Shown here piece after piece: positions 9,001 through 15,000 of a stretch of DNA of 32,454 bases. The position numbers were made by a program. How positions within the stretch are numbered: position 1 is the stretch's first letter; every line of letters starts with the position of its first letter. Source of the stretch: a virus (taxonomy: Duplodnaviria > Heunggongvirae > Uroviricota > Caudoviricetes); the IMG/VR virus record IMGVR_UViG_2874945390_000003; one strand, 5' to 3'.

Positions 9001-12000
9001 CAGCTGATTTAGGTCTTCAGTTATGCGACAGGCATGGCAAGCCAGCAAGCCGTGATCAGGTTGAGCGGATGCTTCAGGTTTTTGTGAAAGAGGGGATGAT
9101 CTCCATTGATGGAGAGAAGCAAAAAGGTCGTGTGATCACCATCACAAATTACCATGAATATGCTCAAAAAATGGACAATTCACCCGCACATGAAGCCGCA
9201 CAAACAACCGCACATCATGAACAAGAAGGTATTAACAAGAATATAAATAATATCTCTAATACTGACGTATTAGAGAGTGCCACAGCAGACAAAAAGTCTG
9301 ACAAGAAAAAACCTTCCGTTAGCTGTCAGGATGTTGTCGATGCTTACCACGAAATCCTTCCTGAAGCGCCAAGAATCCGCGCACTGAATGACAAGCGTAA
9401 AAACCAGATCCGAACGTTCTGGCGCAAAGCCGGAGTGATAACCCGCCAGCTTGACGGGCATGGGTTCACGATGCAGGACTGGAGAAATTATTTGAGCTAC
9501 GTAGGCGAAAATTGCCGATGGATGTTCGAAGAGCGCCCAAACCATCAGCGCGGAACCGTCTGGCACAAAAAGGGATTTGATTACCTGCTTAACGATAATA
9601 CCTACCTGAAAGTTCGTGAGGGTGAACACGATGACCGATAATTTTTATGCGCCGCCCCATAGCATCGAGGCAGAGCAGGCGGTGATTGGTGGATTGCTTC
9701 TGGATGATGACAGCAGTGAGCGCGTCCAGAAGGTTCTTGCGATACTGAAGCCTGACTCATTTTACAGCCGGCCACACAAAATCCTTTTCGAAGAAATAAC
9801 CAGAATGCACCGGGAGCAAAAGCCAGTAGATGGCCTGACGCTTTTCGATGAACTGGAGCGTAAATCGTTAACGGCGTCTGTTGGCGGTTTTGCTTATATC
9901 GCTGAGATCGCAAAGAACACGCCAAGCGCCGCAAACATCGTTGCCTATGCAATGCAGGTTCGCGAAACCGCAATGGAACGCTACGCCATCAACCGCATAA
10001 CTGAAGCGACGGAATTGCTCTATTCCCGCAACGGAATGACTGCAACGCAGAAGTACGAAGCTATTCAGGCGATTTTCACGCAACTGACAGACCATGCAAA
10101 AACCGGATCACGTCGCGGCCTTCGCTCATTTGGTGAGGTCATGGAAGACTGGGTTAGCGACCTTGAGAAGCGTTTTGACCCGTCAGGCGAACAACGAGGA
10201 ATGAGCACAGGGATCCCATCGCTGGACAGGATGCTGTCACCGAAAGGTCTGGTGAAAGGCTCTCTGTTTGTCATTGGCGCTCGCCCTAAGATGGGGAAAG
10301 CGCAACCGCTTAATTCACGCATTTTGCTTGCTGATGGTTCATGGACAACATTTCGTGACGTATGTGTTGGAGATTCCCTAGCATCAGTGGATGGACAACC
10401 ATCATTCGTGTCTGGAGTTTTTCCTCAAGGGGAGCGAGATATTTACCGAGTTACGTTCTCTGACGGAAGAACCGTTGATTGCGCGGATGATCATTTGTGG
10501 GAAATTCATAGTAACCGTATTACCGGTGGCGTTGATGTTGTAGACACCTGCCGCCTACGGGACATGATGGAATGCGTTCGCTATCAAAGCCGCATTCATG
10601 TTCCTGGTATTAGCGGTGACTTCGGATTGCCTGTTGATTTAGGGATTAGCCCATGGCTGTTAGGTGCGTTACTTGGCGATGGAAATCTTGCAGGTACGCC
10701 ACGAATCAGCATGACGGAACCATACATCATTGAGCGAGTAAGATCTGAAGTGGGTGACGATATTGAAGTCAGGCATGTTTCTGGCTGCGATTACTCCCTA
10801 TCTCACAAGTTTAGCCGCAAATTATCTCTTACGCGGGTTATGCAACGGCTTGGTATCTACGGCTGGATGTCAGAGATTAAAATTATCCCGGATATTATTT
10901 TTTCTGCTGATAAGCAAACTCGTATTGATGTTCTATGCGGATTACTTGAAACCGATGGTTGGGTTGAAGGAAATAATGCCCTGCGCTTTAGCTCGGCAAG
11001 CAAGTTCCTGTCAGATGGTGTAAAGCGGCTGGTGCATTCTCTTGGTGGCGTGTGTCGTATGACAACCAAACAGGAGCCGAAATTCAGTTATAAGGGAGAA
11101 ATGCGCAAAGGTATGGATGCCCATATTTGCGCAATCAGGTTGCCTGATGAGGTTCTATCACACATAAAATCTCCACGCCTGAAGCAAAAATTCACTGCAA
11201 AACGCATCAAAACAAGTGCGCCTGTTATCACGTCGGTTGAGTATATTGAGGTGTACTGGCAATAGCGGACACTACCATTTGTTCTTTTTTTAAGCAGCCA
11301 TCTGATGATATTTTTCCCTGAAGGCTGCCGGGGAGATATTCCCCAGACGAGAGTGACGACGCTGACGATTGTAGAAAATCTCAATGTATTCCCGTATTAC
11401 TGAGATGGCTTCATCCCGGTTATTAAAACGATAGTGGCTCAGGCTCTCATTTTTCAGCGTTCCCCAGAAGCTTTCCATCGGAGCGTTGTCGTAACAGTTA
11501 CCTTTACGCGACATTGATGTTTTCAGACCAAACTGCTCCTGTATGACCCGGTAATCGTATGCGCAGTACTGTGAACCTCGATCAGAGTGGTGGATTAGCC
11601 CGGCAGGTGGGCGCTGGCTCCTGAGCGCCATAAACAGGGCTTTACCTGTCAGCTCTTTTGTCATGCGCTCTCCCATGGCGTAGCCGACAATTTCGCACGT
11701 ATAAACATCTTTGATGCCAGCGAGGTACAACCATCCCTCCTGTGTGGCAACATACGTCAGGTCCGCCACCCAGACCTGATTTGGTGCTGTAGGAGCGAAC
11801 GTCTGGTTCAGCAGATTTGGCGCAACTGGCAGATTGTGGTTCGGGTTCGTAGTCGCTCTGAACTTGCGTTTCTGCTTACAGCGTAGCCTTAGCTCCTTAC
11901 GAAGACGTGCCAGTCGGTCACGACCAACGATGATGCCATTCTCTGCCAGCTCCGTCTGGAGCCGCCGGGTTCCATATGTTTCGCGAGTGCGGATATGTGC

Positions 12001-15000
12001 CACCTTAATCTCCAGTTTTAGCCGCTCATCACTTTGTTTTCTGTCTGAGGGTTCATGCTGTACCCAGTTGTAATAACCGCTCCTGGATACACCAAATACC
12101 TGACACATCGCTTCAATGGGAAATTGTTGTCGCCATTGTTCGACTAACGCGTATTTTTCAGCGACTCCTGTGCAAAATACGCTGTTGCTTTTTTTAATAT
12201 ATCTCGCTCAAGGCGAGCTTCATTTAACGCCTTACGCAGTTGCAGAATTTCAGATTCCAGTTCAGCCACCGTGCGGGAACCAGGAGTACCGAGCCCTTTT
12301 CTGGCGGCGGTAACCCATTGTCCTAAAGTGCCTTCAGGAAGGGATAATCGGGAAGCGCCTTCACTGATCGAAAGTTGATTTTCAAGAACCGTTCTGACAG
12401 CTTCGGCTTTGAACTCTTTAGAGTAACGTTGGGTTTTTCTGCTCATTATTAGCTCCTTCTGATGCCATTCTATTTCAGGAAGGAGTGTCCGTTAAACTCA
12501 GGCTACCTCATATTGGACGTGAAGAGTGCATTTGCATCATGGTATCCCACGAGAGACATTTGTATGCAACTGACGGATACATTCTAACCCACAACACCAC
12601 GCTATACAGCCAGATGGCAATCAACTGCGCAGTGCATGAGAAAAAGCCCGCTCTGATGTTCAGCCTTGAAATGCCAGGTGATCAGATACTGGAAAAACTG
12701 GTAGGGCAGAAGTCTGGTGTTAACCCGAATATTTTTTACCTTCCGGCGACAAATGACGCCGATGACGGCTATCAGGGTGATTACGATGGTGACTTCAACA
12801 GGGCGATCGAAACAGCCAATCGCTTGAGTGAAATCGACCTGCTTTACATCGACGACACGCCGGGATTATCTCTGGCTCAAATCGTCAGCGAAAGCCGTCG
12901 AATCAAGCGAGAAAAAGGATGTGTTGGCATGATTCTGGTCGATTACCTGACACTAATGACCGCTGAAAAGGCCGATCGCAACGACCTTGCCTACGGCATG
13001 ATCACCAAAGGACTGAAGAACCTTGCCAAAGAGCTTGATTGCGTTGTTGTGCTTCTGACGCAGCTTAACCGCGCACTGGAAACCCGAACCAATAAACGCC
13101 CATTACCAAGTGACTCACGAGATACAGGGCAGATTGAACAGGATTGCGATTATTGGGTGGGGATCCATCGTGAAGGTGCTTTTGATGACAGTGTTCCACC
13201 TGGTGAAACCGAACTAATCCTTCGTCTCAATCGTCATGGCAATACCGGCACGGTGTATTGCATTCAGGCAAATGGCGCTATTTATGACACAGACCAACAG
13301 TCTGCTGAAATGCGCCGACGTGAACGCGAGGAACCGCAGTCCAAGAAGAAAGGAGGATTCTGATGACCATCTACATCACTGAGCTTGTAACAGGCCTGCT
13401 GGTAATCGCAGGCCTTTTTATTTGGGGGAGAGGGAAGTGAACGATAGCTACCGACAGTTTGAAAACTGGTGGTCAAAAGACAAAAGCCAGTTCACAGGAG
13501 ACGATGAATTAAAAGAGTTTGCCTGGGTGATATGGCAGGCATCGCGCTCTGCTATTGAACTGGATATCGACTGGCCCGAATCGAATGACGACTTTTGGAA
13601 AGATGGTGAAGAAGGTGCTTATGCGATGGGTTATGAGGATGGGCGTGACAAAACGGTAATTGCAGTAATGAAAGCCATCAGAGCCGCTGGAATTAAAGAG
13701 AAGAATTTTCGATGAAGCAAACAATCTTCCTCCGAACTAAGCAACAACAGCAAGCCGCAATAAATGCCATCCTCTCAACTCCTCTCGATAAAGACAAGCC
13801 AGTCACCATCCGCATTACTGACTACAAGCGAAATCTTGACCAGAACGCAAAATTTCACGCGATGCTGGCGGATATCGCTCGTCAGGTTCAATGGTGCGGC
13901 AAATGGTTAAAACCAGAACAATGGAAGGTTTTGTTGATCAGCGGTCATGCAGTGGCAACAAAACAGGAAGCTGATGTTTTGCCCGGCCTTGAAGGAGAAT
14001 GCGTCAACATTCGCGAAAGCAGCGCGCAGATGAGCGTGAAGCGCATGGCAAGTCTGATCGAGTACACAACAGCCTGGGCTATTGGTCAGGGTGTCAGATT
14101 TACCGACAGGAGGTATGAATGAGGCGACAGCGACGAAGTTTCACCGACATCATCTGCGAAAACTGCAAATACCTTCCAACGAAACGCTCCAGAAATAAAC
14201 GCAAGCCAATCCCAAAAGAATCTGACGTAAAAACCTTCAACTACACGGCTCACCTGTGGGATATCCGGTGGCTAAGACATCGTGCGAGGAAATGACTATT
14301 TATCCGGTGCGCCGCCAGAATGACGGCGCGGTGTGGTTAAACGAAGCGGATCTGGAGTTTTTTTCCAGTAGCGCGGGCGAATTTTTTTAGGGTGGCAAAT
14401 GATGGGCCGCTGATACCTGATGCGAGATTACTTTCCATTCTGGTGATCGCGGTCGCTTTTGTTCCCATTCGCTCGGCAACTTCAGCCTGAGTTAAGCCAG
14501 CTTCTTTGCGTGCTGCCAGCATTTCATCAAGCAGTGCGAATTCGTCAGCGATAGCGTCGTATTCTGCTTTAAAAGCCGGGTCTTCCATCCATTTGGCTGC
14601 CATTTCGTCGTGTGTCATGGTGGGGAGAGTGCGTTTACCAGTCATGCTTAACCTCCTTCATTCTGGTTTCAGCTTTCTTGCGTTCGGCTGGCGGTGTTTT
14701 CTGCGTTTTCTTTACAAAACTATGCAGCATGATGATGCGTTTCCCTGTCAGAGTGCAGTAAAAAACACGCGCGATCCCATCGTTGCCTTTAATTCTGAGT
14801 TCGAAAAGTCCGTCACCAAAGGCGCTGGTGTGAGGTTCTCCGAGATTGCTGCCATATATCTTCATACGTTCAACGAGATGTTGGTATCGGGCACGCATAC
14901 TCAATGGAAGCCGATCGACTTCCAGCCTTACATCTTCACTGTAGTATTCGATAGTGTAGTTCATAGGTATCAACATAACAAAATCGTTATATGCATTCAA

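Follow-up and report, generated by a model that had tools for sequence, protein, structure and literature searches.

What does an insertion sequence (IS) break when it lands in an intein that itself lies within a phage gene, and in what order did the pieces come together? The question is raised by a 32,454-nucleotide (nt) stretch of Caudoviricetes DNA, IMG/VR record IMGVR_UViG_2874945390_000003 (hereafter the window), in which the second of three IS600 copies, copy 2, interrupts an intein coding sequence within the gene of a DnaB-like prophage replicative helicase. An initial annotation had read copy 2 as a simple insertion, flanked by a direct TAT repeat, in the endonuclease region of the intein; it placed IS600 last in the order helicase, intein, IS600 and concluded that the helicase cannot be made. 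Our analyses make it highly probable that three mobile elements are nested here, prophage, intein and IS600, and that the last of these breaks the splicing domain of the intein and, with it, the helicase.

IS600 copy 2 and its empty site

Copy 2 is 99.8-99.9% identical over 1264/1264 base pairs (bp) to copies annotated by RefSeq/PGAP as "IS3-like element IS600 family transposase," compared with a threshold for IS600 membership of >95% nucleotide identity across the full 1264 bp; the name used here is that of the PGAP annotation. Its termini are imperfect inverted repeats, TGAGGT... at the start and ...ACCTCA at the end (TGAGGTGTACTGG... and ...CAGGCTACCTCA), in which the first 6/6 and 20/45 positions match and which have the 5'-TG...CA-3' form. 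The transposase is oriented opposite to the helicase. Between orfA and orfB (Table 1) lies a slippery A7G run (AAAAAAAG; ~12195-12188, IS position 316) in an arrangement of the -1 frameshift type, and the NCBI gene call for copy 2 is a fused OrfAB of 385 amino acids (aa). A promoter-like site of IS600's own is located at 12495-12467 on the minus strand.

The span first assigned to the element, 11244-12513, consists of IS600 plus both TAT copies. In the duplicated TAT, the first T is the third base of the intein Tyr315 codon and AT begins the Ile316 codon; the IS thus splits Tyr315 from Ile316. When the IS and one TAT are removed, 9616-11246 joins to 12514-13366 to give 2484 nt in one frame, with 826 codons, reading ...SVEYIGREECICIMVSHE... 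across the junction. A megablast search of 5426 complete E. coli genomes with this rejoined sequence returned a single ungapped 2484-bp match, at 98.4-99.0% identity, in 16 genomes, and in ~375 others matches to only the two outer parts, spanning 1455 bp. None of the 16 full-length matches falls in two pieces; hence no IS600-interrupted allele is present among the 5426 complete E. coli genomes. Six of the 16 uninterrupted alleles were aligned, and all six are identical to the rejoined window over 40 nt centered on the site, contain one TAT each and have no internal stop codon. Because these empty alleles are identical around the site and carry one TAT, copy 2 must have arrived by simple transposition, duplicating 3 bp of the target; a chance match of flanks (for which the a priori probability is 1/64) and an origin by recombination are excluded.

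The window holds two further IS600 copies in the same orientation, at 341-1604 (copy 1, 5 mismatches to copy 2) and 17559-18822 (copy 3, 3 mismatches), and their 3-bp flanks are unequal (GTT/TAT and GGG/CTG, respectively). IS-mediated rearrangement has therefore occurred nearby, and copy 2 could in principle likewise have come by recombination between copies or by rearrangement, with its TAT/TAT flanks matching by chance. We consider the probability of this negligible: the flanks of copy 2 rejoin base for base to an uninterrupted allele with exactly one TAT, the genes on either side follow the order found in intact prophages (O gene, helicase, ninB), and the empty-site comparison excludes such an origin. 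A 4-bp duplication (ATAT) around a 1263-bp IS was also considered and ruled out, since the terminal A is common to all three copies and is followed by C at copy 3. Thus, the initial annotation is borne out in naming the element IS600, in describing a simple insertion with a direct TAT repeat, the only such insertion among the three copies, and in the exact restoration of the frame, with the junction peptide as it was written there.

The interrupted class 3 intein and the position of the cut

The intein is 343 residues long, from Ala1 to Asn343, and lies in the P-loop of the helicase, GARPKMGK/A1...N343/T+1. An intein-less allele, L002, reads GARPKMGK-TTLYSQ and aligns as exactly 343 codons shorter. 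Class 3 inteins are defined by a Trp at block B position 12, a Cys at block F position 4 and a Thr at block G position 5 (PMC2807308). The full residue set is present in the rejoined sequence: Ala1, with no Cys, Ser or Thr at position 1, His65, Trp67 two residues beyond it, Cys323, Thr341, His342, Asn343 and Thr+1. All complete homologues keep DHLW, the block F Cys and THN/T, with the family alignment showing the pattern C-x-C-I...THN/T; position 1 is Ala, or Ser in PhoH-type hosts. The host proteins of these complete relatives are ATPases of the DnaB, PhoH, UvrD and FtsH types.

Evidence from the fold points the same way. A Pfam search with the restored protein gave weak Hint and LAGLIDADG signals in the insert between DnaB and DnaB_C, LAGLIDADG_3 scoring 22.3 bits, just under its cutoff of 22.5. 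In phmmer searches of PDB sequences, the N-terminal 80 residues of the intein matched the gp41-1 intein (1.5e-8) and the N-terminal lobe also matched the class 3 DnaB inteins of M. smegmatis and M. chimaera (E values of 1e-6 to 4e-6), with the middle of the insert matching PI-SceI. Two AlphaFold models were used, one of a 40%-identical homologue (P0003) and one of an E. coli allele that differs from the rejoined window intein solely at residue 189 (Arg, against Trp in the window). Foldseek matched the homologue model to PI-SceI (template modeling [TM] score of 0.71), to I-DmoI and to class 3 DnaB inteins; the PI-SceI and I-DmoI matches support LAGLIDADG membership. By fold and catalytic residues the insert is a predicted class 3 intein, which when intact would be expected to splice. 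It adds a new, unannotated intein to the class 3 group found at the P-loop of phage helicases, and a literature search combining intein, Shigella and DnaB found no relevant paper.

The endonuclease domain also appears intact. Both LAGLIDADG motifs keep their acidic residues, and the family shows hardly any variation at L121, G122, L125, G128, D219 and G220; the predicted enzyme would presumably be capable of cleavage. The window intein contains no frameshift, no stop and one private substitution, R189W (CGG>TGG at 10864-10866), which lies in this domain; the residue is Arg in every other allele examined, Salmonella included.

Where does IS600 fall with respect to these domains? The E. coli allele model (predicted local distance difference test score of 91.1, predicted TM score of 0.91) begins with five extein residues, so that model number minus 5 equals intein number. 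In it, the last endonuclease helix comprises intein residues 292-298 and is followed by a lower-confidence loop, 299-308. Residues 309-326 (model 314-331) then form one 18-residue strand that contains Cys323, followed by two short terminal strands. The homologue model has the same helix-loop-strand layout. Local phmmer alignments place residues 310-343 on the gp41-1 C-fragment and on M. smegmatis DnaBi1 residues 105-139, where Cys118 is the partner of Cys323; the endonuclease loop of DnaBi1 spans 89-100 and is followed by a structured C-lobe, 101-139 (PMC10559147). The IS600 site precedes Cys323 by seven residues and the C-terminal splice junction by 27 codons, and it is 11-12 residues beyond the point at which natural split inteins are divided. 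Because this site is within the Cys323-bearing strand and both LAGLIDADG motifs are upstream of it, the models indicate that IS600 destroys the splicing (HINT) domain, not the endonuclease domain, and leaves the endonuclease coding region upstream untouched.

The initial annotation was thus correct that the IS sits inside the intein and not at an extein-intein boundary; its placement in the endonuclease region does not stand, as the endonuclease ends by residue 298 and the insertion at 315/316 falls in the C-terminal splicing strand. That placement is understandable, given that the site is just ~17 residues beyond the last predicted endonuclease helix and that, in the linear block scheme, the interval from block B to block F is often loosely termed the endonuclease region. 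Nevertheless, we regard it as very unlikely that IS600 lies within the homing endonuclease domain and chiefly disrupts the endonuclease, since all predicted endonuclease helices and strands, like both motifs, are upstream of 11193, residues 309-326 are a single strand in the models, and the region from 310 onward has its counterpart, by alignment, in the structured C-lobe of endonuclease-free mini-inteins (PMC10559147). Moreover, the motif I-x-S-V-E-x-[IV]-G is conserved in family members from different host proteins. Table 1 follows our assignment of the cut to the splicing domain.

Table 1. Coordinates in the window of the helicase exteins, intein parts, IS600 copy 2 and target-site duplication
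Feature	Coordinates	Strand	Basis
N-extein, DnaB-like prophage replicative helicase	9631-10299	plus	Pfam DnaB N-terminal domain, 4.2e-31; boundary by alignment to intein-less L002
Intein N-terminal splicing (HINT) lobe, ~residues 1-99, Ala1 first	10300-10596	plus	phmmer; model strands 7-82
Block B His65 and Trp67	10492-10500	plus	residue map
Predicted LAGLIDADG homing endonuclease domain, ~residues 100-298, intact	10597-11193	plus	motifs; phmmer to PI-SceI; Foldseek; model
LAGLIDADG motif 1, LLGALLGDGNL, residues 120-130	10657-10689	plus	residue map
LAGLIDADG motif 2, LCGLLETDGWV, residues 212-222	10933-10965	plus	residue map
Linker (299-308) and first 7.7 residues of C-terminal HINT strand (V309-Y315 plus two bases of I316 codon)	11194-11246	plus	model
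Left target-site duplication copy, TAT	11244-11246		single TAT at empty sites
IS600 copy 2 (IS3 family), 1264 bp	11247-12510	minus	ends; Pfam; identity to annotated copies
orfB of IS600 copy 2	12108-11290	minus	Pfam HTH_21, rve, rve_3 and rve_2
orfA of IS600 copy 2	12446-12144	minus	Pfam HTH_Tnp_1
Right target-site duplication copy, TAT	12511-12513		single TAT at empty sites
Intein remainder: last base of I316 codon, then G317-N343	12514-12595	plus	alignments; residue map
Block F class 3 nucleophile Cys323	12533-12535	plus	aligned to DnaBi1 Cys118 and gp41-1
Block G Thr341-His342-Asn343	12587-12595	plus	residue map
Thr+1 (ACC)	12596-12598	plus	residue map
C-extein including stop codon, starting at Thr+1 (TTLYSQ...)	12596-13363	plus	Pfam DnaB_C, 2.7e-53

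Order of events and fate of the helicase

The order helicase, then intein, then IS600, which had been deduced from the exact rejoining of the intein frame, is supported by natural intermediates, namely the E. coli alleles without the intein (~375) and those with an uninterrupted intein (16). When the window and six of the uninterrupted E. coli alleles are compared, the inteins differ at 0-5 of 1029 nt and the exteins at 14-36 of 1452 nt. The window exteins show 16 differences to an intein-less allele versus 25-36 to the six aligned intein-bearing alleles, and GC content is 46% in the intein and 50-52% in the exteins. Because the inteins are near-identical while the exteins differ, the intein appears to have spread recently and horizontally into already diverged helicase alleles, presumably by homing. 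The homing-type signature across the intein-bearing loci L001 and L005-L009 suggests that in enterobacterial prophages the LAGLIDADG endonuclease works at present or did so until recently.

Presence and absence by themselves give no direction, and precise intein loss is known in principle, so that the intein-bearing allele could instead be ancestral and the ~375 intein-less alleles its descendants. We judge this unlikely. The near-identical inteins sit between exteins that are 5-10 times more divergent per site, extein relationships do not track the presence of the intein, intein GC is below that of the exteins and the endonuclease is apparently intact; all of these are the expected marks of recent horizontal invasion. 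Under loss or gain of the intein alike, the IS600 insertion comes last. The exact truncated 544-aa product (...SVEYIEVYWQ, then stop) is on record just in NCBI CP026836.1, a 5.1-Mb chromosome of Shigella boydii (PMC12817139), and in an independent Logan assembly, that of run ERR200293, whose contig stops just inside IS600. One Shigella lineage alone has the IS-bearing allele, and the intein there shows a single private substitution and neither frameshift nor stop; the IS600 insertion is therefore the latest event and a recent one.

The reading frame of the helicase is broken, in agreement with the initial view that the gene is disrupted. Translation of the upstream part, from the helicase start at ATG 9631 (an in-frame GTG is present at 9616), would end five codons into IS600 (...SVEYI-EVYWQ, then stop) and yield the N-extein plus intein residues 1-316. 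This product is without Cys323, Thr341-His-Asn343, Thr+1 and the ATPase domain, and is predicted to be unable to splice because Cys323, Thr341-His-Asn343 and Thr+1 are missing. For the downstream part, a scan of 12100-12700 for an outward promoter-like site on the plus strand found none, the sole site being IS600's own minus-strand promoter, and a terminator-like hairpin is present at 12203-12217. An in-frame start, GTG 12485, is available, overlapped by a Shine-Dalgarno-like AGGAG with zero spacing; the start chosen by the gene caller, ATG 12539, lies past Cys323. Since the truncated product could not splice, the downstream part has no promoter-like site and the called start comes after Cys323, the helicase gene is almost certainly a pseudogene from which no helicase would be made.

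Could the insertion instead have created an accidental split intein, with the 544-aa N-fragment and a C-fragment from GTG 12485 (Ile316-Asn343 and the C-extein) trans-splicing to active helicase? The in-frame open reading frame (ORF) 12485-13363 keeps Ile316-Asn343, Cys323 and Thr+1. In class 3 inteins both nucleophiles are on the C-fragment, an artificially split class 3 DnaB intein trans-splices (PMC10559147), and a natural split class 3 intein exists (PMC7891396). Such an arrangement, if real, would be a natural snapshot of split inteins arising via mobile-element disruption. We nonetheless give it hardly any probability. IS600 interrupts a beta-strand midway along its length, 11-12 residues beyond the natural split sites, instead of falling in the endonuclease loop, and the N-fragment would be burdened with a 5-residue foreign tail and the ~200-residue endonuclease domain. 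Expression of the C-fragment would have to contend with the want of an outward promoter-like site, the hairpin, the unspaced AGGAG and a gene caller that preferred the start after Cys323. Finally, in a defective prophage nothing selects for the helicase. A pseudogene thus remains our reading of the locus.

In the course of events that we propose, the DnaB-like helicase gene belongs to a lambda-like prophage that occupies ybhC (lambda att) in Shigella boydii. Its P-loop codons (GARPKMGK/T) were invaded by a class 3 intein of 343 residues equipped with a LAGLIDADG homing endonuclease, and later one IS600 copy transposed into the intein at Tyr315/Ile316, duplicating TAT, seven residues before Cys323. 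The identity and limits of IS600, the 3-bp duplication, the exact frame, the intein limits, its class 3 residues and the place of the cut on the predicted structure come directly from the data, whereas homing, splicing by the intact allele and the lack of helicase are deductions. Several points weigh against this account. The C-lobe alignments are weak and local (domain-2 i-Evalues of 33 and up), anchored by the Cys and the THN motif, and the boundary between endonuclease and splicing domains is drawn from these weak local alignments and AlphaFold models. The splicing competence of the intact intein and the absence of the helicase are both read from sequence, and the low intein divergence could stem partly from gene conversion among prophages, not endonuclease-driven homing.

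The rest of the prophage is in decay too, with a truncated integrase and additional IS elements, so that IS600 copy 2 most likely represents neutral degradation by IS of the kind usual in Shigella. IS600 is one of five IS expanded in all Shigella species and a major source of pseudogenes (PMC7373316). That an IS lies within an intein, and the intein within a prophage gene, is real; this is not a new kind of system but ordinary Shigella gene decay. Its mechanistic weight is small, the locus merely adding to the IS-made pseudogenes of Shigella prophage remnants. It is, however, a clean example of three nested selfish elements for which all intermediate states are preserved in public genomes.

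Annotation, prophage context and known relatives

The helicase gene is flanked by Phage_rep_O upstream and NinB downstream and encodes both DnaB domains, as in DnaB-like lambdoid helicases, with the N-extein ending in the Walker A sequence GARPKMGK. GenBank holds the C-terminal piece as RIG32159.1, a 274-aa "helicase DnaB [Shigella boydii]" starting at ATG 12539; from E. coli (for example PKJ17470.1) and Salmonella Alachua it holds the product of the uninterrupted gene, 821 aa long and likewise named "helicase DnaB." The intein-bearing proteins form a 90%-identity cluster of 449 members from E. coli and Salmonella that are named just "helicase DnaB"; a protein homologue search with the intein omits the near-identical 821-aa proteins, and its match list understates the frequency of the intein. 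In 6/6 E. coli genomes whose annotation was read, RefSeq/PGAP splits the intact intein-bearing gene into two "incomplete" pseudogene fragments, and the gap between these, itself unannotated, is the intein (L001 3016-5481; L005-L009 116-2581). Such mis-splitting means that the intein family is likely overlooked by annotation-based surveys. This class 3 intein occurs widely among the helicases of lambdoid prophages in E. coli and Salmonella, with a divergence pattern of the homing type. Another, independent breakage of the intein-bearing gene is seen in P0002 (NCBI/Logan, 235-kb contig), a 565-aa chimera of the helicase N-terminal part and the first ~112 intein residues fused to a PF11134 phage protein.

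Elsewhere in the window, IS600 copy 1 truncates the phage integrase (1-372, minus strand), of which the N-terminal part is missing together with xis, and copy 3 abuts a truncated IS66-family transposase (18838-19728); these contexts suggest IS-mediated deletions or recombination. A Gp49 (HigB-like toxin) and HTH_3 antitoxin-like pair (14337-15045, minus strand) is found between the ninE and antirepressor genes, and a free-standing NUMOD4/HNH_3 homing-endonuclease-like ORF in the nin region (16798-17307) adds another selfish element within a few kb of the intein. Past the IS600/IS66 junction, baseplate and tail-fiber genes form a different, myovirus-like phage module (19980-28968), which is interrupted by an IS110-family transposase (23896-25092), the region being a mosaic of prophage remnants. 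Adjoining the tail-fiber genes is a gene for a 547-aa protein with leucine-rich repeats and a NEL E3 ligase domain of the IpaH type (29148-30791, minus strand), consistent with an origin in Shigella or enteroinvasive E. coli.

How do the element and the intein compare with known systems? As an element, copy 2 resembles the IS600 of Shigella and enteroinvasive E. coli in its 1264-bp length, TG...CA ends, orfA/orfB organization, A7G site, DDE (rve) transposase and 3-bp duplication; the target alone, an intein coding sequence, is unusual, and the element itself is ordinary. The intein resembles in its features the mycobacteriophage Bethlehem DnaB intein, the founding class 3 member (PMC2807308). 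Both reside at the ATPase P-loop of a phage DnaB-type helicase and have no N-terminal nucleophile, His65/Trp67 in block B, a Thr-His-Asn end and Thr+1. The block F position 4 Cys is Cys320 there and Cys323 in the window, with full lengths of 341 and 343 residues, respectively. The window intein differs in having Ala1 in place of Pro1, in its proteobacterial, lambda-like prophage host and in being broken by IS600, and its splicing is predicted.

The class 3 mini-inteins M. smegmatis DnaBi1 and M. chimaera DnaB-1 (PDB 6BS8 and 6RIX) share with it the N-lobe sequence, the C-terminal 34 residues with the Cys in register and a Foldseek match. They have no endonuclease, whereas the window intein has a ~200-residue LAGLIDADG insert at the position of their 89-100 loop. 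The closest inteins in deposited phage genomes, at 46% identity over 343 residues, are those of the primase/helicases of the Stx2a-converting phages Min27 and vB_EcoP_24B, which likewise occupy a replication protein of E. coli lambdoid phages. Their host, however, is a Toprim primase-helicase, "P", and 46% identity marks a separate intein allele or lineage. Finally, in the natural split inteins gp41-1 and AceL NrdHF and the artificially split DnaBi1, N- and C-pieces are separately encoded, as the two parts are here, and the class 3 C-piece holds both nucleophiles (PMC7891396, PMC10559147); in those inteins the break is at the endonuclease loop and the two halves are each expressed, whereas that in the window was made by an IS, 11-12 residues further on and within a strand.

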